Shown piece after piece: positions 3,946 through 32,700 of a DNA stretch of 33,611 bases. The notes under the pieces were generated by a model. That model saw nothing but the letters and a program-made list of their open reading frames with translations. It searched no databases and was not told where the DNA came from. The translations under genes and the position numbers were made by a program. Position 1 is the stretch's first letter, and the number at the start of each line of letters is the position of its first letter. Source of the stretch: Caldisericota bacterium (lineage in GTDB: Bacteria > CAIJMQ01 > JAADFP01). The DNA lies in assembly GCA_013152825.1 (NCBI GenBank), contig JAADFP010000045.1, positions 1 through 33,611 of the forward strand. Reading direction: 5' to 3'.

Positions 3946-4307
3946 ATATACAGGAATTGGTAGAGAAAGAAAAAATGCGGGAAGATATCCCGGAATTTCA
4001 GGTAGGAGATACAGTCAAGGTATACACAAAAATCTTCGAAGGGGGAAAAGAAAGGGTGCAGGTTTTCGAGGGCATAGTAATTCGTAGACGCGGAGGAGGA
4101 TTGCGTGAAACCTTTACTGTGCGGCGCTCAAGTCATGGTGAAGGGGTAGAAAGAATATTTCCCCTGCATGCTCCTATAATAGAAAAGATTGAGGTAACCC
4201 GCAAAGGCAGAGTAAGACGCGCCAAACTTTACTACCTGAGAAAAGTAAGGGGTAAGAAATTAAAGGTAAAAGAAAGAACCCAGAGACGAGAAGTAAATAG
4301 TAAATAG
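3942..4307 (+). CDS. rplS: 50S ribosomal protein L19
   Basis: 121 aa; FQVGDTVKV...[12 protein letters not shown] core of bL19; the last 4 codons and the stop lie inside the heptad repeat. Confidence 0.95.
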
Positions 4308-4395
4308 TGAGTTGATTCCATAGTATCTTAGTTTCTGGGGTTTATCTTTTGGATTTATTTAGGATTTAGAGTTTTGTGTTTGGAGTTTTTAATAA
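4291..4395 (+). repeat. heptad-periodic modular intergenic element, locus A (NAGTAAA block followed by a T/G-rich xxxxTTT block)
   Basis: 15 in-phase 7-mers from 4291; no C in 4347-4404; the 17-mer at 4358-4374 is repeated exactly (inverted) at 27418-27434. Confidence 0.8.
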
Positions 4396-4983
4396 AGGTG
4401 GAATCTATACCCAGGAGGAATCTGGGAAAAAGGATACACCTTTATAGCCGGGATAGACGAGGTAGGAAGAGGACCGCTGGCCGGGCCAGTAGTTGCAGGT
4501 GCAGTAATTCTGAGACCTTTTACCTACATAGATAAACTCAAAGACTCAAAAAAACTTACTCCTGGAAAGAGGGAAGAATTTTTCGCTCTAATTGTAAATA
4601 ACTGCATAGACTGGGCAGTGGGTATAGTAGAAGCTCGGGAAATAGAAAGGATAAATATTCTCCAGGCTTCAAAATTAGCCATGCAGCAAGCCATAAAAAA
4701 CCTCAGACAGAAGCCGGATTTTCTCCTCATAGACGCAGTAAAACTTACTTCTGAAACACCTTCCAAATCAATAATAAGAGGCGATGAAATCTCAGCTTCC
4801 ATCGCCTGTGCCTCAATAATAGCCAAGGTAATGAGAGATAGATTAATGGATAACTTATCCCTTATCTTTCCCCAATACGGCTTCGAAAAGCATAAGGGAT
4901 ACCCTACAAAATTCCACCGGGAGAAAATCGCAGAGCATGGATTAACTCCCATACACCGGAAAACCTTCAAGTTTAAAAAGTAG
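4396..4983 (+). CDS. rnhB: ribonuclease HII; 5' end unresolved (no in-frame ATG/GTG/TTG before codon GTG 4618)
   Basis: The frame is open from 4396 and reads ..IWEKGYTFIAGIDEVGRGPLAGPVVAGAVIL..DSKKLT..ASIIAKV.RD..M..GFEKHKGY, spanning the full RNase HII core. The ORF track reports only the C-terminal 121 aa. Confidence 0.8.
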   Translation, partial: RWNLYPGGIWEKGYTFIAGIDEVGRGPLAGPVVAGAVILRPFTYIDKLKDSKKLTPGKREEFFALIVNNCIDWAVGIVEAREIERINILQASKLAMQQAIKNLRQKPDFLLIDAVKLTSETPSKSIIRGDEISASIACASIIAKVMRDRLMDNLSLIFPQYGFEKHKGYPTKFHREKIAEHGLTPIHRKTFKFKK

Positions 4984-4985
4984 AA

Positions 4986-5393
4986 TTGAAAGGTCATTTA
5001 GTCAGATTCTTTTCCCTATTTAAAAAAGCACCTACTTTAAAGAGAGGTGTACAGGGAGAAAAACTGGCAGAGAAATTCCTGCATAGGAAAGGCTTGAAAA
5101 TATTGCAGAGAAACTTCCGGATAAGAGGGGGAGAAATAGATATCATTGCAGAAGATAACGAGACTACTGTTTTTATAGAAGTAAAGACCCGCTCCACGGA
5201 CTCCTTCGGCAGTGCGGGGGAGAGTATAAACTACTACAAGAGGAAAAGCTTGCGGAAAACTGCTCTTTTCTATCTTAAAAAGAAGGGACGTCCTTTTAAG
5301 GCCAGGTTTGACGTAATATATGTAAATCTGCACTCTGATAACCGGCTAAAAGCTATCGAATGGATTAAAAATGCTTTCCCATTTGAGGAATGA
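4986..5393 (+). CDS. YraN family (UPF0102) endonuclease-like protein
   Basis: 135 aa with GE.LA..FL...G..IL.RN.R..GGEIDIIA.D....VFIEVKTR, the YraN signature; TTG start 2 nt after the rnhB stop. Confidence 0.8.
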   Translation: MKGHLVRFFSLFKKAPTLKRGVQGEKLAEKFLHRKGLKILQRNFRIRGGEIDIIAEDNETTVFIEVKTRSTDSFGSAGESINYYKRKSLRKTALFYLKKKGRPFKARFDVIYVNLHSDNRLKAIEWIKNAFPFEE

Positions 5394-5400
5394 CAGGGAA

Positions 5401-5630
5401 AGACTATACACTCAAGACTTTAGACTATAGACCGTAGACGGGAGGAATTAGTTAGTAGCGAGTAGATAGTAGTGGGTAGCGAGGAAAGGAGTGGTAAGCA
5501 GTGAACAGTGAATAGTAAGCAGTTATGAGAAAATCCCAAATCCCTCCTGATGAAACATCGGGATCGGGAGGCGGAATTGGCAACTAACAACACCTATCTG
5601 CATGCGGCTCGCCCACGCAGGATAACTTTA
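5401..5630 (+). repeat. heptad-periodic modular intergenic element, locus B
   Basis: 28 in-phase 7-mers across 5401-5596 followed by an imperfect hairpin at 5595-5624; shares 12-19-nt exact words with loci C and D. Confidence 0.85.
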
Positions 5631-5653
5631 TCCCCATCCCTCAAAGAAAATCT

Positions 5654-6415
5654 TCACTTTAGCTGGGGGAAAAGAGAGAAGAAATTTTCCGTGGTAATGC
5701 GGGCAATATCTTCTTCCGGGATTCCTTTTAATTCCGAAAGCATTCGCAAAGGAAGAACCACTTCCAGCGGAGTAGTAGGTTTACCTTTATAGGGCACCGG
5801 GCTGTCAGTTTCCAGGATTAACCTATCTATAGGCGCTCTCTCAATCACTCTTTTATAACCATGACTGTAGCCTATGGCCGGATTAACCGAAAGATACCCC
5901 CCGGCAGAAACTATATCCCCTACCAGAGAAGGACTGCCCGAAAACCAGTGAAATATTGCTCTTTCCACTTCCATTTCTTTCACTATTTCCACACAATCCC
6001 TAACTGCCCGACGAGAATGGATAATCACCGGTTTTTGATATTCTATGGCCAGGGAGAGAAGTTTTTTAAAAACCTCTTTCTGTCTGTCTGGTTCCTCCTC
6101 TCCCTTGTAATCCAGGCCAATTTCACCCAGAGCCACAACAAACTCAATATGCTCTTTTAACCAGGAAATTTCTTCTTCTACTTTCAGGTTACCCAAAAGA
6201 AAGGGATGAAGTCCTATGGCTGGATATACCAGGCCTGGAAATTTCCGGGAAATTTCCAGTATCTTCTGGTTTGAAATCATTTCCTCCCCTACCCCCAATA
6301 CCACTATCCCTTTCCTATCGCACTCTGCCAGCACACTTTCTACCCGGGGAATATCGTAAAGGTGAGAATGAGTATCCACCAGGAATACAGGCTTCTCTCT
6401 TTTTAAAAATTGCAT
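5654..6415 (-). CDS. tatD: TatD family metal-dependent hydrolase/DNase
   Basis: 253 aa; VDTHSHL N-terminus, GEIGLDY, HSR and ETDSP motifs of the TatD family. Confidence 0.85.
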   Translation of the reverse strand: MQFLKREKPVFLVDTHSHLYDIPRVESVLAECDRKGIVVLGVGEEMISNQKILEISRKFPGLVYPAIGLHPFLLGNLKVEEEISWLKEHIEFVVALGEIGLDYKGEEEPDRQKEVFKKLLSLAIEYQKPVIIHSRRAVRDCVEIVKEMEVERAIFHWFSGSPSLVGDIVSAGGYLSVNPAIGYSHGYKRVIERAPIDRLILETDSPVPYKGKPTTPLEVVLPLRMLSELKGIPEEDIARITTENFFSLFPQLK

Positions 6416-12481: not shown

Positions 12482-14471
12482 ATTTTCTCCTGATCTCCCT
12501 CTGCAATGAGTCGACAGCCTCTCTAATTTTAACATTACCAGTATCTCTTTTAGCAAGTTCTCCAAGCACCTTTAATGCCTCCCCGTAGCGTCCTTCTTCC
12601 CGTAAAAGCTTTGCCAGGTCCCAGTAAGCCGGGAGAAGAGATGGTTTCAGTGAGATGACTTTCTTAAATTCTTCGATGGCTCTCCCTTTCTCCCCTATTT
12701 TTTTATATATAAGAGCAAGGTTAGCACGCGCTGAAGGATGATACGGGTTAAGCTTCAGCATCTCCTCCAGGTAAAATCCTGCCTTTATTATTTCCCCCTT
12801 TCTGAGATAAAGGGCACCTAAATTGAAATCTGTCTCAGCATAATGCGGTGCCAGTTCCTTGATTCTCAAATACTCTTTTAGAGCCCTGTCCAGATTATTA
12901 ATAGAAGCATAGGCAAAGGCAAGACGATACCGAGTTCTTAGATTATAAGGATCCCAGGCAAGAGATTTAAGGTATTCAGGTATTGCTTTATCCCAGATAA
13001 GTTGTCTTCGGAAAATAATACCCTTTCTGAGATGTATCTGGGATAAGTTTTCTTTCACCCCCACATTAAAGAAAACCCAACCGCCTGCCAGGGAAAGAAA
13101 AACTATTAAGAGGTTTCTCTGAAGAGGAGAGAAAGCCAATTTGAAGTGATAAAATTTCTTCCTGCCATGAGGGGGCAGAGCAAATAACAACCCCATAAAA
13201 GCGAAGAAAAAGATAGAAGAAGAAGGATACCTCAAATTAACCCCAAATAGATTATTCACCAGTATTCCCACAATCCCCGCCATCAGCGCCGGAAAAATAA
13301 AATTGTTACTTTTACTAAACTTCCTTGCTCCCTCTCTCAAGGATATAAAAATAAGCACCAGAAAAATTAACAAGCCCACTATCCCCACCTCACTCCATAG
13401 TTCCAGAAACTCATTGTGGGCATGATCCGTAGCATTTACCGCATGAGGGTTAAGGAAATACTCAGGAACCCTGTACTCTGGATAAACCACTAAAAAGGTG
13501 CCCAGGCCCCAACCTACTAAAGGGCGCGCCACAATCATTCTCCAGGTTCCCTGCCAAATTTTTACTCTTATGCCAATCGTCCCCTCTTTCAAGTCTTTAT
13601 TAATTTGCTGCTTGACATCGGACATTTTAGGAAAAACAGCCAACACGCTAACCAGTAACAGAAAGATAAAACAGAGAGAAAAAATAATCTTCCCTTTCTT
13701 CTTCATAAATTTATTTCGGTAAATAATCATCAGTGTAATCAATCCCGCAATTGTAGCTATGCCAGCCGCTCGTCCTCTTACTCCGTATATCAATAATAAG
13801 GAAAGTACCGCAACGATAAGAGAGGGGATTCCTATGAAAGCTTTTTTCCGCCTAAGGTTATGCAGAGAAAAAAGAAGAGATAACGGGAAAAGCATATTCA
13901 GGTAGGCAGAAAAGAAGTTTGGATTCCCAAAAGTAGAAGGTAAAACTTTTTCATAGACACGGGAATATGTGATGATTTCTTTTATGCCAATCCTGGGATA
14001 GGTAAGCCTTATGTTTTGCATAAAACCCTGCAGGTAGGAGATGCTTTCTTTTATAACCAGAGAGGCAAATGGTATCAACAGGATTCCTATGATAATTTTT
14101 TCTTCTTTCTTGCTCCAATCCATTATGGAGATAAAATAGAAAAGCAAAAAGTAAGAAATCTGGGTATAAAGGTAAGGCCGGCTTGCATAGGGATAAGGTG
14201 AGAAAATAGTAGAAAGAACATACCAGAGGAAAAGAGCAATTAATACAGGGCAAGCTGGATGATAGAACAGCTTTACCTTGCCTTTAAGACTTGCTTCTAT
14301 GAAGAAAAAAAGGACAGAAAATAACAAGAAAAACTGAAGCTGGGACAGTTTAACTAAAACGTAATTATACGCCTGGGGAAGCTGGACAAGGGGAACCAGA
14401 AAAAGAGAAAAGAGAATAAACCCTTTCACCCAGTTTTCTAATGAACCATTCTGCTTCACTCCATTACTCAC
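12456..14471 (-). CDS. O-antigen ligase (Wzy_C)-like polytopic membrane protein with C-terminal TPR repeats
   Basis: 671 aa with about 10 TM segments, a ..HAHNEFLELWSEVG.. loop typical of the O-antigen ligase family, and ~170 aa of TPR-like repeats at the C-terminus. Confidence 0.7.
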   Translation of the reverse strand: MSNGVKQNGSLENWVKGFILFSLFLVPLVQLPQAYNYVLVKLSQLQFFLLFSVLFFFIEASLKGKVKLFYHPACPVLIALFLWYVLSTIFSPYPYASRPYLYTQISYFLLFYFISIMDWSKKEEKIIIGILLIPFASLVIKESISYLQGFMQNIRLTYPRIGIKEIITYSRVYEKVLPSTFGNPNFFSAYLNMLFPLSLLFSLHNLRRKKAFIGIPSLIVAVLSLLLIYGVRGRAAGIATIAGLITLMIIYRNKFMKKKGKIIFSLCFIFLLLVSVLAVFPKMSDVKQQINKDLKEGTIGIRVKIWQGTWRMIVARPLVGWGLGTFLVVYPEYRVPEYFLNPHAVNATDHAHNEFLELWSEVGIVGLLIFLVLIFISLREGARKFSKSNNFIFPALMAGIVGILVNNLFGVNLRYPSSSIFFFAFMGLLFALPPHGRKKFYHFKLAFSPLQRNLLIVFLSLAGGWVFFNVGVKENLSQIHLRKGIIFRRQLIWDKAIPEYLKSLAWDPYNLRTRYRLAFAYASINNLDRALKEYLRIKELAPHYAETDFNLGALYLRKGEIIKAGFYLEEMLKLNPYHPSARANLALIYKKIGEKGRAIEEFKKVISLKPSLLPAYWDLAKLLREEGRYGEALKVLGELAKRDTGNVKIREAVDSLQREIRRKYGREYNFK

Positions 14472-15559: not shown

Positions 15560-16191
15560 ACTTTCTCCTTTTTAATACTTTCCGTATTTTAGCACAAGAT
15601 CGATAACCAAGGTCATTACCATCAAACTCGTAGCCCTTATCCATTACCATTTTACACATATCCAGGAAGAGATTTCCCGGAGTCTCTATCCTCTCCCGCA
15701 CCCATTCCGGACCAGTAACCATTAAAACCAGCAATTCCGCGCTGTTGATGTAGATCCCCTGAAATACAGAGGTAGCGCCCCTTGCTTTGCTCACGATGAT
15801 ATCTGTTGTAAAGGGCTGCATAGTTCACCTTGGTATAACCCGATTTTAATCTTTCTTTAATTTTCAACCAGTCATCTTTTTTCTTAATAGGCCAGTCAAT
15901 AATTTCCGGCGTGGTGGAATAATCTCTAAAATTCTTCCTGATTCCTCCCGTAGGAGTCCTTTCCACGATATAAGTCGCGTTTTCCTGGAATACTTCAGCG
16001 GGGAAACGGGGAGAGAGGTCAAAGCCAAAGTTTACCAGCTCATAGCCAAAATAGTCTTCTACCGGCATGAAATCGGGTAGTCCTTCCTTTCTCCACCGCC
16101 TAACGGTAGCCCCCCAGGGATTATTGTGGATAGGAATTCTATCTGCTTCCTTATGCTCTAAGATTCTTTTCACTCTTTCTCTTGAGGTCAT
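15525..16191 (-). pseudogene. uroporphyrinogen-decarboxylase (URO-D/MtaA-like) family gene, frameshifted and 3'-truncated
   Basis: Two overlapping ORFs (15652-16191 and 15525-15821) in different frames together read as the N-terminal ~210 aa of a URO-D-like protein (MTSRERVKRILEHKEADRIPI...GYEFDG). The remainder is missing and the next gene starts at 15559. Confidence 0.6.
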
Positions 16192-16365: not shown

Positions 16366-16569
16366 TTACTTTTTGAGGGCAATTTCTGCCAGGGAAAGTG
16401 CAATGGCAAACAGCAAGCAGAACATGGCAAAACGCAAGAAACTAAGAGGATAGGCAGGCAATTTTGCCACACCAATAACTATGCCGGTAAGCTTTTGTAC
16501 GAATCCTACCAGCACACTGAGAATGGCCAGCAAAAAGGATACCCACAAACCGAACCTAAAACCTTTCAT
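16366..16569 (-). CDS. small two-TM membrane protein, unknown function
   Basis: 67 aa with two hydrophobic helices; its ATG directly abuts the folD stop. Confidence 0.4.
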   Translation of the reverse strand: MKGFRFGLWVSFLLAILSVLVGFVQKLTGIVIGVAKLPAYPLSFLRFAMFCLLFAIALSLAEIALKK

Positions 16570-27375: not shown

Positions 27376-27436
27376 TGAGCTGCTACCCATACTTGTGTCC
27401 CGGGGTGAAATTAGGATAAACTCTAAATCCTAAACT

Positions 27437-27481
27437 TCCCGAAAGAATCCCGGACCCCGATATTATATCGGGGCTTCGGGA
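27437..27481. other. nested GC hairpin module
   Basis: Outer stem TCCCGAA (27437-43) pairs with TTCGGGA (27475-81). Inner stem CCCCGATA (27455-62) pairs with TATCGGGG (27466-73), loop TTA. Confidence 0.6.
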
Positions 27482-27567
27482 CCAAAACCTAAATAAATCT
27501 AAATGCTCAAGCCCAAAACTTCTCCCAGGAAACCAACTAACTGCTTATCCACCTACTCCCCGGTAAC

Positions 27568-27603
27568 ATCGGGACAGGCAGGAATGACAGGGGGAGCTGG
27601 TAT
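27568..27603 (-). repeat. 36-nt exact repeat, copy 1 (inverted partner at 31597-31632)
   Basis: ATCGGGACAGGCAGGAATGACAGGGGGAGCTGGTAT is the exact reverse complement of 31597-31632. Confidence 0.95.
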
Positions 27604-28026
27604 CCTGCATCTTGTATCTTACTCACTTCCTAACTTATTCACTTACTCACTTTTTACTATCCTGCATTCTTCTCACTACTCCTTCCCTCGCTACTAACTA
27701 ATTCCCCACTATAATGTCTAATGTCTATGGTCTACAGTCTAACTCGTTGGTCGGTTGAGGTTGCGTAGCTCGAATCGTATATCGTTATTCGTCCACCGTC
27801 TTCCCCCACCATAAAATAGGAAGAATATTCTCTCCTTGTTCCTCTCTTCCTCCTTTTTGCCCCTTCCTCTTTTCCTCTATTCAATCCTGTCTATTGACTC
27901 CTGATGAAATCTTTGGGATTACCTCAGTTTTATGGAAGAGAAAATCCCATAGTTGTGTTAAAATTTGGGGGAAAGCGGAAGTAAAAGTTTCTGGAGTTTC
28001 TTGTGTTTAAACAGAAAGAATAGATA

Positions 28027-30879: not shown

Positions 30880-31320
30880 ATGAACATACTGGTAATTCAT
30901 GGGCCTAATCTGGATTTACTGGGAAAAAGAGAACCAGAAATTTATGGAAAAGAAACCCTGGAAGATATAAACAATCTTTTGGAAAAGAAAGCAGAAGAAA
31001 AAAAAGTTTCCCTGAAAATAGTTCAAAGTAATTACGAAGGTAAAATTGTAGAAGTAATAGGTTCCTCGTTAGAATGGGCAGACGGGATAATAATTAATCC
31101 TGGTGCCTACACTCATACTTCCATAGCCATCAGAGATGCACTTGCTACATTCAACAAACCCTCAATAGAAGTCCATCTTTCTAATATCTACGCCAGGGAA
31201 AAATTTCGTCATCATTCCTACATCTCACCTGTATGCACGGGAAAAATTACTGGTCTGGGAAAATGGAGCTACTTATTAGCACTGGAAGCATTGGTGGCAA
31301 TAATGAAAAGCAGTAAATAG
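30880..31320 (+). CDS. aroQ: type II 3-dehydroquinate dehydratase
   Basis: ILVIHGPNLDLLGKREPEIYG..., INPGAYTHTSIAIRDA and EVHLSNI motifs; the last codons and the stop lie inside the heptad repeat. Confidence 0.95.
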   Translation: MNILVIHGPNLDLLGKREPEIYGKETLEDINNLLEKKAEEKKVSLKIVQSNYEGKIVEVIGSSLEWADGIIINPGAYTHTSIAIRDALATFNKPSIEVHLSNIYAREKFRHHSYISPVCTGKITGLGKWSYLLALEALVAIMKSSK

Positions 31321-31596
31321 TGAACAGTAAGGAGTAAATAGTAAGTAGGGGAGTAAGCGAGAAGAAGCATAACCCGCCTGCTCTCGACTAAGCCATGCCC
31401 GCTCCCGACCAACGCGGAAAGGCAGGCGGGGAGGGCGGACAGAGGCACAAAGGAGAGAAGAGAAGAAATGAGGAGAAGAAAGGCCGGGTATCCTGAGGAA
31501 TTTTATTCTAACTTCCATGTGGTTTAGGGTTTGAGTTTATTATTTTGGATTTTGGGTTTATTTAGAACTTTGGATTTGGTGTTTAGGGTTTATCCA

Positions 31597-31632
31597 ATAC
31601 CAGCTCCCCCTGTCATTCCTGCCTGTCCCGAT
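31597..31632 (+). repeat. 36-nt exact repeat, copy 2
   Basis: ATACCAGCTCCCCCTGTCATTCCTGCCTGTCCCGAT is the reverse complement of 27568-27603. Confidence 0.95.
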
Positions 31633-31656
31633 CTACATCGGGGCGAAAGCAGGAAT
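31615..31656. other. nested hairpin module
   Basis: ATTCCTGC (31615-22) pairs with GCAGGAAT (31649-56). This encloses CCCGAT (31627-32) paired with ATCGGG (31637-42), loop CTAC. Confidence 0.6.
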
Positions 31657-31827
31657 CCAGGATTTAGACTATAGACCTTAGACTGGCAGGAGTAATTAGT
31701 AGCTAGGGAAGAGTTGGTTATTAGTTTTGGAGATTGGTAGGGGTTGTTTGAGTTTTGTTATTTGTAATTTGTGGTTTATTTAAAACTTAGGGTTTATTCC
31801 CCCTCCCATCTTACCTCAGAGCAAATA

Positions 31828-31938: not shown

Positions 31939-32328
31939 ATGGAATATAAAGAAGAAGTTAGCTACTGGTTAAAAGCAGCAGCGCATGATTTAGAAGTGGC
32001 TGAAATTTTGTTTGAGAGAAGGAAATATGATTGGTGTCTTTTTATAGCTCATTTAGTACTTGAAAAAACTCTCAAGGCTCTCTATGTAAGAGATAATGCA
32101 AAGATGCCCCCACCTATTCATAAACTGGATATCTTAGCCAGAGAAACCAAATTATCTTTTTCTCTTGAGGATTTAGAGTTTCTTAAAAAAGTTAATGAGT
32201 TTAATATCCAGGCAAGGTATCCCGACAAAAAATTCTCTTTTTATAAAATCTGCACTAAGGAATTTGCAGAAAAATTCTTTAATAGAATAAAAGAGTTTTA
32301 TAAATGGTTACTAAAAGAGATAAAATAA
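31939..32328 (+). CDS. HEPN domain protein
   Basis: 129 aa, all-helical; ..A..DL..AE.L...G.Y.W..F.AH...EK.LKAL... and ..ARYP.. are typical of the HEPN family that pairs with minimal nucleotidyltransferases; no Rx4-6H motif found. Confidence 0.8.
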   Translation: MEYKEEVSYWLKAAAHDLEVAEILFERRKYDWCLFIAHLVLEKTLKALYVRDNAKMPPPIHKLDILARETKLSFSLEDLEFLKKVNEFNIQARYPDKKFSFYKICTKEFAEKFFNRIKEFYKWLLKEIK

Positions 32329-32621
32329 TCCAGGAACTCCGAGACTTAATAGCCACCCTGGAAAAAGAGGGGATTTCTATTAGGAGAGCTTATCTATTCG
32401 GCTCCTATGCCCGTGGCAACCCTAAAAAATGGAGCGATATTGACCTTCTCCTTGTCTCTGATAATTTTTCCGGCATAAGATTTTATGATATTGAAAAACT
32501 GATTCCATTGACCAGAAAATTCAACAAGTTTATTGAACTCCATCCTCTCAAAACTGAAGATTTCAATTTAAAAGATTTATTTATAAAAGAGATAACCAAA
32601 ACCGGAATTAGAATTAAGTAA
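32304..32621 (+). CDS. minimal nucleotidyltransferase (MNT, Pol-beta superfamily)
   Basis: 105 aa; LFGSYARGNPKKWSDIDLLLVS matches the GSxxRG...SDxDL NTase motif; overlaps the HEPN gene by 25 nt. Confidence 0.85.
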   Translation: MVTKRDKIIQELRDLIATLEKEGISIRRAYLFGSYARGNPKKWSDIDLLLVSDNFSGIRFYDIEKLIPLTRKFNKFIELHPLKTEDFNLKDLFIKEITKTGIRIK

Positions 32622-32700
32622 ATCGACGGTAGTGAGGGAAGAATAGTAAACGGTAAATAGTAAGCAGTAAATAGTTTCGTCCCTTAGTATCCTGGCTGGA
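32616..32700 (+). repeat. heptad-periodic element, locus E (NAGTAAA block)
   Basis: 9 in-phase 7-mers across 32616-32678: AAGTAAA TCGACGG TAGTGAG GGAAGAA TAGTAAA CGGTAAA TAGTAAG CAGTAAA TAGTTTC; followed by GTATCCTG at 32687-94. Confidence 0.8.

Follow-up and report, generated by a model that had tools for sequence, protein, structure and literature searches.

Compound heptanucleotide arrays in the yraN-tatD spacer of a Calescamantes-related bacterium

The closest described counterparts of the element reported here, a run of degenerate 7-nt units at positions 5401-5596 of a 33,611-nt stretch of bacterial DNA (contig JAADFP010000045.1, hereafter the window), are the heptanucleotide repeats of other bacteria. 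The STRR repeats of heterocystous cyanobacteria, reportedly described by Mazel and coworkers in 1990, have the unit consensus sequences CCCCART, TTGGTCA, and CAACAGT (STRR1-3). A class of long simple-sequence repeats (SSRs) is said to have been set out by Mrazek and coworkers in 2007, and small dispersed repeats of Nostoc are said to insert within tandem heptamers (Elhai and coworkers, 2008). Seven-nucleotide spacing is also a property of some protein binding sites. The HutP site in the hut leader of Bacillus subtilis consists of UAG-N4 repeats, with two sets of three UAG triplets in the 5' leader terminator, and cold-shock-domain proteins bind one heptamer each.

Heptameric SSRs are over-represented in many bacteria (PMC4692102). 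In Xanthomonas they keep the same gene neighborhood, with length and sequence that vary between close relatives (PMC4692102), and polymerase slippage has been proposed as the origin of heptamer SSRs (PMC4692102, PMC4679880). Families of four or five tandem heptanucleotides in Geobacter metallireducens are annotated as putative regulatory elements (PMC2700814). Beggiatoaceae have TAACTGA repeats, and assemblages of mixed heptamers are on record for Microcystis and for some Bacteroidetes (MacGregor 2015, PMC4679880).

The element at 5401-5596 occupies the spacer between yraN and tatD. We consider it probable that it is a compound degenerate heptanucleotide SSR of STRR-like type, one member of a set of intergenic mosaics that is specific to its clade and that would have arisen by slippage and ectopic copying. 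No earlier description of such repeats was found for this candidate phylum.

Seven-nucleotide periodicity of the yraN-tatD spacer

Across 5401-5596, identity at a lag of 7 nt is 0.524, versus 0.27 in shuffled sequence (z 7.9 for mononucleotide shuffles). With dinucleotide-preserving shuffles z is 8.5, and 0 of 1000 shuffles reached the observed value. Lags 14 and 21 are also in excess (z 6.0 and 5.1, respectively), and lags 5, 6, 8, and 9 are at expectation or lower. The Fourier spectrum has peaks at periods 7 and 3.5, which are missing in equal lengths of the flanking yraN and tatD coding sequences. An earlier sequence-only reading had proposed 28 in-phase heptads at this position. The 7-nt period is real: autocorrelation and Fourier analysis both recover it, and lag 7 stands out from the rest of lags 5-9.

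The periodicity is concentrated in the first 18 units (5401-5526; lag-7 identity 0.60, z 7.5). The last 10 (5527-5596) are weakly periodic (identity 0.40, z 2.6, a value that 11 of 1000 shuffles reach), so that of the 28 proposed units 18 stand as a strong array and the remainder is better called a hairpin-bearing tail. No lag-7 periodicity was detected in 5597-5653 (z -0.2). Tandem Repeats Finder reported period-7 arrays at 5401-5432, 5449-5472, and 5499-5516. When the sequence is cut into 28 heptads from 5401, AG opens 11 of the first 12, as had been noted and as direct reading confirms. The accompanying claim of one 7-nt register throughout is approximately true; taken strictly it fails because the AG anchor moves by +1 on passing from the second block of units into the third. 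The GGAATTAG module and the AGAC block also differ in relative phase by 1 when this locus is compared with its inverted copy at 27687-27769. Mismatches between heptads rise from 2.8 for neighbors to 6.3 at a separation of twelve units (rho 0.66). Neighboring units are most alike and copies differ by a 21-nt (three-unit) insertion or deletion, which identifies a compound degenerate SSR and corrects the earlier view that this is not a simple microsatellite.

The array is bordered by yraN (UPF0102; 4986-5393, plus strand; Pfam PF02021, E 7e-28), whose TGA stop codon at 5391-5393 lies 8 nt ahead of it, and by a tatD-family hydrolase gene (5654-6415, minus strand; Pfam PF01026, E 1e-56). The two genes are convergent. 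Read on the plus strand, the array begins with six units of the (T)AGACNN family, identified by direct reading (block 1, 5401-5442), followed by units of AGnnAGT or AGTAGCG type (block 2, 5443-5484), and then by transition units and the YAGTRAR family (block 3: CAGTGAA twice, TAGTAAG, and CAGTTAT; 5485-5526). The tail (5527-5596) holds a GC-rich hairpin at 5541-5569 (-15.4 kcal/mol, z -3.2) and two 12-mers in common with 27898-27949. A non-periodic remainder (5597-5653) reaches the tatD stop codon. RNA folding of the whole spacer is weak (z -2.1 for the plus strand and -0.4 for the minus strand), and the local hairpin alone is stable.

The spacer is noncoding and built of differing heptad blocks, in agreement with the sequence-only reading. 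Its minus strand contains a 57-codon open frame through the array (5420-5593), which is spurious, since the reverse complements of the units lack stops and leave the reverse strand more open. A consensus scan of 4200-5800 found no sigma-70 promoter, and its terminator-like matches lie inside coding sequences, with none in the spacer. No Rfam 15 family reached its gathering score and none of relevance appeared at E <=1, and no tRNA was found. We rejected a hammerhead ribozyme, for which CUGAUGA at 5546-5552 made a candidate, as the stem II/GAAA arrangement is lacking and Rfam gave nothing at E <=1.

Related mosaics in the window and in relatives

Modules of the array recur at other loci. Elsewhere in the window, 19 of the 12-mers of 5401-5596 are found again, versus 1.3 in shuffles (maximum 9). 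All four shared words listed in the sequence-only reading are where it placed them: 5422-5433 matches 31666-31677, the 19-mer GGAATTAGTTAGTAGCGAG of block 2 (5444-5462) is identical but inverted at 27687-27705, and the tail words 5527-5538 and 5544-5555 match 27938-27949 and 27898-27909, respectively. In the segment at 27898-27949 (plus strand), CTCCTGATGAAA and GAGAAAATCCCA have the same orientation as in the tail and the reverse order. Relative to the inverted copy, the 5401 locus has an in-register insertion of 21 nt, or three units, at 5463-5483, with GTAGCGAG at its flanks. A 51-nt segment (5412-5462) matches 31656-31706 at 78% of positions, and 27568-27603 forms a perfect 36-nt inverted match with 31597-31632. 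This last pair brackets the 4-kb recJ-ribD-aroQ region and is a possible substrate for inversion.

A sliding scan of the whole window counted 323 segments (49 nt each) in which lag-7 identity was 50% or higher; no other lag between 3 and 13 exceeded 69. The periodic stretches lie mainly in five larger spacers: rplS-rnhB, yraN-tatD, upstream of recJ, aroQ-HEPN, and after an MNT gene. Two marginal stretches, at threshold, fall inside coding open reading frames (about 14096-14154 and 16392-16448). The vocabulary is small, comprising TAGACNN, AGTAGCG-type, (C/T)AGTRAR, and TTTRGGN/TTTTGKN units, and is interleaved with GC-rich hairpin modules.

Specifically, the rplS-rnhB mosaic (4288-4400, plus strand) consists of AGTAAAT units and then TTTAGGA/TTTTGNG units. 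The mosaic upstream of recJ is inverted (27415-27775, minus strand) and contains TAGAC units (27712-27742), the 19-mer, GAGTAAG units, the 36-nt module, TTTAGGN-type units, and a hairpin at 27448-27481 (-23.9 kcal/mol, z -4.2). On the plus strand, a CAGTAAA/TAGTAAG array (31305-31352) includes the aroQ stop codon. It is followed between aroQ and the HEPN gene (31518-31800) by GGTTTAG units, the 36-nt module with a hairpin (31619-31652; -17.3 kcal/mol, z -3.7), TAGAC units (31659-31683), a AGTAATTAGTAGCTAGGGAAG block, and GTTTTGN units. A TAGTGAGGGAAG motif and AATAGTA/AGCAGTA units (32628-32680, plus strand) come shortly after the MNT-type nucleotidyltransferase gene and its stop codon. The HEPN and MNT-type genes form a toxin-antitoxin-like pair (31939-32621) with heptad arrays on both sides (31655-31800 and 32628-32680).

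The order in which a TAGAC array leads to an AGTAG(C/T)G...AGGGAAG block is found at 5401, in the reverse complement of 27687-27769, at 31659, and at locus L040 of another contig. To this extent the "conserved order" of the sequence-only reading stands. The other modules, in shared segments of 13-36 nt, vary in order and orientation among loci; shuffling, inversion, and swapping are seen even when a close relative is compared at the orthologous spacer.

The genes of the window are ordinary housekeeping genes (eno, ffh, trmD, rplS, rnhB, a polyamine operon, mla, pheT, fab, recJ, ribD, and aroQ), and gene content is typical of a thermophile, not of a phototroph. The nearest named match to its Ffh, at 88% identity, is a protein recorded under the name Candidatus Calescamantes bacterium, which agrees with the earlier statement that the host is not cyanobacterial. 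Two independent assemblies of one relative were compared, an NCBI metagenome-assembled genome (MAG) with a TatD 85% identical (L001) and an ENA assembly with an Ffh 94% identical (L126), together with a Calescamantes MAG (L127), a locus with an Ffh 75% identical (L128), and L040, which is placed in the clade only through its shared repeat vocabulary. The (T)AGACNN family occurs in all five. The arrays of L127 and L128 are in reverse orientation, and L040 has TAGAC, AGTAGCG, and CAGTGA arrays. Among the relatives compared, lag-7 dominance is limited to the window, L001, L126, L127, L040, and, weakly, L128. Relatives with Ffh 67-71% or TatD 48-77% identical have compact spacers, as short as 4 nt, and no lag-7 excess.

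At the orthologous yraN-tatD spacer, L001 and L126 are identical and consist of seven AGACNNN units (versus six, one of them degenerate, in the window), a palindromic hairpin CCCTGAACCCCACGTGGTTCAGGG, and then AGTAAGCAGTGAATAG. Alignment to the window shows that the GTAAGCAGTGAA block (part of block 3) and the TAGAC array are kept, that the hairpin module stands in place of the 49-nt AGnnAGT block, and that the window tail of about 100 nt is absent. The contents of the rplS-rnhB spacer are likewise swapped between the window and L126, and AGTAAGC units are found at the 3' end of L126 rplS. The adjoining rnhB of the window (4374-4983) has a 4-nt deletion relative to L126 near its 5' end (about 4415-4420) that places the TTG start codon in another frame. 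The frame encoding RNase HII is open, but its first ATG, GTG, or TTG does not come before 4618. Possible causes are a non-canonical start codon, truncation at the N terminus, or an error in sequencing.

A further mosaic of L001 starts where a small membrane-protein gene has its stop codon (CAGTGAG CAGTAAA ... four TAGAC units ... CAGTGAA and a hairpin) and replaces most of a URO-D-like gene. The orthologous site of the window has no array. The URO-D-like gene, of 352 aa at locus L005, is a remnant in both: the window (15652-16191) retains the N-terminal 179 codons, and L001 (690-875) retains only about 50 C-terminal codons, the remainder being heptad mosaic.

TatD relatives are few, and no exact-protein record was found for the TatD of the window. 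Beyond its own clade, the closest homologues are about 43% identical and have archaeal names (Hadarchaeales, Thermoplasmatota, and Bathyarchaeota). The polyamine operon that adjoins tatD includes a pyruvoyl-dependent arginine decarboxylase. Together these hint at archaeal-type or exchanged genes in the lineage.

TAGAC heptads are also frequent in unrelated metagenomes. A scan with four TAGACNN units matched at least 120 contigs of GC content 0.30-0.70, some of them telomere-like eukaryotic contigs. In control scans of viral contigs, heptads of the same composition were as common or commoner (CAGAT 83 and AGCAT 82 versus TAGAC 51), and other periods gave 60 (period 8) and at least 120 (period 6). 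We therefore reject TAGAC arrays as a conserved, widespread element and regard the matches elsewhere as independent tandem repeats, not homologues. Among the matches listed, L040 alone shares the wider vocabulary; two others (L058 and L129) are similar by word match, yet unrelated. A genome that has one heptad family generally has several: of 120 loci among the matches listed, 83 contain two or more period-7 families. At eight loci, on unrelated and often high-GC contigs, a TAGACNN array is followed about 20-60 nt on by an inverted NNGTCTA array, an arrangement that would make long imperfect palindromes. Paired inverted heptamer arrays have been noted in Xanthomonas too (PMC4692102). Seven further loci have kilobase-scale degenerate TAAACCC/TAGACCC arrays on telomere-like, eukaryotic-looking contigs.

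Relation to described heptamer repeats

The arrays have every structural feature of heptanucleotide SSRs: head-to-tail 7-nt units in at least 3-4 copies, over-representation of period 7 relative to other periods, a mostly intergenic location, and whole-unit differences in copy number between copies and between relatives. They lack the features specific to STRR and TAACTGA repeats, namely unit sequence, host, and position. The element is of the same kind as the STRR and long-SSR heptamers of cyanobacteria, Xanthomonas, Geobacter, and Beggiatoaceae, and is not a new kind of element.

The cyanobacterial STRR repeats, to which the sequence-only reading had pointed, are the right kind of analogue. 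They share with the arrays tandem 7-nt units, several families per genome, intergenic and dispersed location, and high variability of the same spacer between relatives. The units differ (CCCCART, TTGGTCA, and CAACAGT versus TAGACNN, AGTAGCG, and YAGTRAR), as do the hosts, heterocystous cyanobacteria versus a Calescamantes-related bacterium. Unlike STRR arrays, the blocks described here are short, degenerate, and joined to hairpin modules. None of the three STRR units was found among the arrays; CAGTGAA differs at a single position from STRR3 in its CAGTCAA rotation, and is a different unit.

Mixed assemblages and TAACTGA repeats resemble the arrays in being intergenic, in carrying stops in forward orientation, in combining several heptamer families per spacer, in occupying spacers unlike those of the closest relatives, and in often lying where contigs end. 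The concatenation of heptad families, by which the sequence-only reading had set the element apart from STRR repeats, is not unprecedented, since Microcystis and some Bacteroidetes were already known to mix several heptamer families in one spacer (PMC4679880). The TAACTGA sets of Maribeggiatoa are mostly just upstream of start codons, whereas the arrays here mostly abut stop codons, and among the arrays only a single CAGTTAT unit (5520) is of TAACTGA type. With the GGGAATC SSRs of Xanthomonas and the GGGGAYT SSRs of Nostoc (Rehm et al. 2015, PMC4692102), the arrays have in common the prominence of heptamers among intergenic SSRs, a gene neighborhood that is kept while length and sequence vary between close relatives, and a proposed origin by slippage. 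Those SSRs have G-rich units and are single-family, in contrast to the compound arrays here, whose units are not G-tracts and therefore have no quadruplex potential.

Two further systems are similar in part. BIME/REP elements also draw on a few short modules (hairpins and flanking motifs) whose order and orientation vary, and they often lie between convergent genes, but their main constituent is palindromic units instead of tandem heptads. The HutP site has (U/T)AG triplets every 7 nt, as do these arrays. It lies in a 5' leader over a terminator, whereas the arrays have up to 18 units and lie at gene 3' ends or antisense, in both orientations. No HutP homologue was seen, although no search aimed at one was made.

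Origin and possible function

Under the reading of the arrays as heptanucleotide SSRs, they would grow and shrink by replication slippage in 7-nt steps, and variant units may be re-amplified locally into in-phase blocks. Slippage in such steps is clearly indicated by the 21-nt and one-unit differences between copies and by the fall of unit similarity with distance. Whole modules are copied among arrays at different loci in either orientation, presumably by template switching or gene conversion across shared heptads. The identical 19-nt and 36-nt words at distant loci point firmly to recent copying of this type, and comparison of orthologous spacers to rapid turnover of modules.

Arrays encroach on the 3' ends of genes. 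Four genes have stop codons inside arrays: the TAG codons of rplS (4305-4307) and aroQ (31318-31320) fall in the first array units, and those of the L001 membrane-protein gene and of one L040 gene are placed likewise. The MNT stop codon, like that of yraN, is 8 nt upstream of its array, and at six loci in all the array lies 0-8 nt from the stop codon of the upstream gene. Arrays can extend up to and into gene 3' ends, where they would be tolerated because their forward strand has stops in every frame. The yraN-tatD array is probably transcribed as 3' untranslated sequence, for which the hairpin at 5541-5569, not the heptads, would be the likeliest 3'-end or terminator structure. The heptads themselves are most likely tolerated, self-renewing filler with no sequence-specific function.

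Several observations weigh against this account. TAG is the commonest trinucleotide in the arrays of the clade (102 of 1587 positions) and the one most often repeated at +7 (47 times in 1587 nt), such that all families have a TAG-N4 core. Neutral drift would not obviously keep TAG, so some constraint, such as all-frame stops or a binding motif, may act. This core is the main feature left unexplained, and a filter for stop-rich arrays or a binding motif could be responsible. The recurrence of the order TAGAC to AGTAG...AGGGAAG in at least four copies suggests a composite unit rather than free assembly. Third codon positions of tatD are 0.63 identical between the window and L001, a moderate divergence with synonymous sites unsaturated, so array conservation at the orthologous site neither proves nor excludes selection. 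Finally, we infer the mechanism of copying from its products alone.

An alternative that the TAG-N4 core brings forward is that the arrays are functional multivalent platforms, in which a periodic (U/T)AG-N4 is read by an oligomeric RNA- or single-stranded DNA-binding protein with a 7-nt footprint. Such a protein would govern mRNA 3'-end stability, termination, or translation of the neighboring genes. Besides the core common to every heptad family, the proximity of arrays to upstream stop codons at six loci and the conservation of the vocabulary across the clade are in its favor. Deletion of heptamer repeats in Nostoc altered reporter expression, for which an unidentified binding partner was proposed (bioRxiv 10.1101/2022.06.06.494920), and a citation in a passage of PMC4679880 has CspB binding heptamer repeats. 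Strand is a further point for it. The forward strand of the arrays is purine-rich (0.58-0.76), like the coding strands of the genome, and by a hand count the purine-rich strand is the sense strand of the upstream gene at about 7 loci versus about 4 that are antisense, numbers too few to test. We did not find support for a strict orientation rule. The arrays at 27687-27769, at L040 10675-10739, and in L127 and L128 are antisense to their neighbors, the adjoining genes are unrelated housekeeping genes, array content is swapped or lost at the orthologous spacers of close relatives, and no candidate binding protein was identified among the genes of the window. On balance we consider a binding platform unlikely. 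A narrower form, in which TAG-N4 arrays 0-8 nt past stops would be docking arrays for an oligomeric nucleic-acid-binding protein that advances in 7-nt steps, as a lineage-specific system of post-transcriptional 3' untranslated region control or RNA protection in a thermophile, is to our minds distinctly improbable. If this docking reading were true, variation at the four non-TAG positions between blocks would tune affinity or partner choice.

With regard to strand composition, GC and AT skew track gene orientation across the window, the coding strands being purine-rich. The cumulative skew changes course near 5.5 kb and again near 27 kb, the points at which genes switch direction. These turns reflect the direction of transcription, not a replication origin.

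Non-autonomous mobile elements, similar to MITEs, REPINs, or small dispersed repeats and moved by a transposase in trans, with the heptads as target or as part of the body, could also account for identical modules of 19 and 36 nt at distant loci in both orientations. Consistent with mobility, the L001 mosaic is present where the window has an empty orthologous site, hairpin modules occur in place of heptad blocks at orthologous sites, and stable hairpins are found in every mosaic. However, the spacer is not bounded by terminal inverted repeats or target-site duplications, the only candidate around it being an 11-nt pair with one mismatch, which is about chance level. The shared segments are short and vary in order, unlike copies of a single full-length element, and no transposase gene was identified in the ~33-kb window or in the related loci, which are fragments of the genomes of relatives. 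We give mobile elements only a slim chance.

A third possibility, that the arrays were selected as frame-independent translation stops, or backup terminators, directly after genes, starts from their richness in stop codons. On the forward strand every frame meets a stop within 21 nt, TAG, TAA, or TGA is present in all heptad families, and 5394-5653 contains 4, 8, and 8 stops in the three forward frames; the four genes that end inside arrays fit as well. One or two units would be enough, yet arrays reach 18 units. The arrays at 27687-27769, L127, and L128 are antisense to or upstream of genes, and array-free relatives cope with 4-nt spacers. A filter on where arrays are tolerated explains the pattern equally, and we regard selection for backup stops as very unlikely.

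We give almost no probability to an artefact of assembly, or to the repeat belonging to a protein-coding gene or a known RNA gene. Repeats are prone to mis-assembly and the 57-codon minus-strand frame runs through the array, but L001 and L126, as independent assemblies, show identical TAGAC arrays in the orthologous spacer, which argues against an artefact, the vocabulary recurs in five window spacers and on four further contigs, the minus-strand frame is not conserved in L001, and Rfam has no match at E <=1.

In practice, mosaics of this type are likely to break MAG assemblies and to shift stop codons, and the long open frames on their reverse strand are likely to mislead gene callers. The reason for the abundance of heptamer repeats, and any role they have, has been a standing question since the STRR description of 1990. 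The locus described here extends such repeats to a deep-branching, thermophile-associated candidate phylum. It also provides a comparative series, in which one spacer is seen with and without arrays, modules are swapped over a short distance, and arrays overwrite gene 3' ends and decaying genes. The series supports an origin by slippage and ectopic copying and singles out the TAG-N4 core as a possible functional feature.

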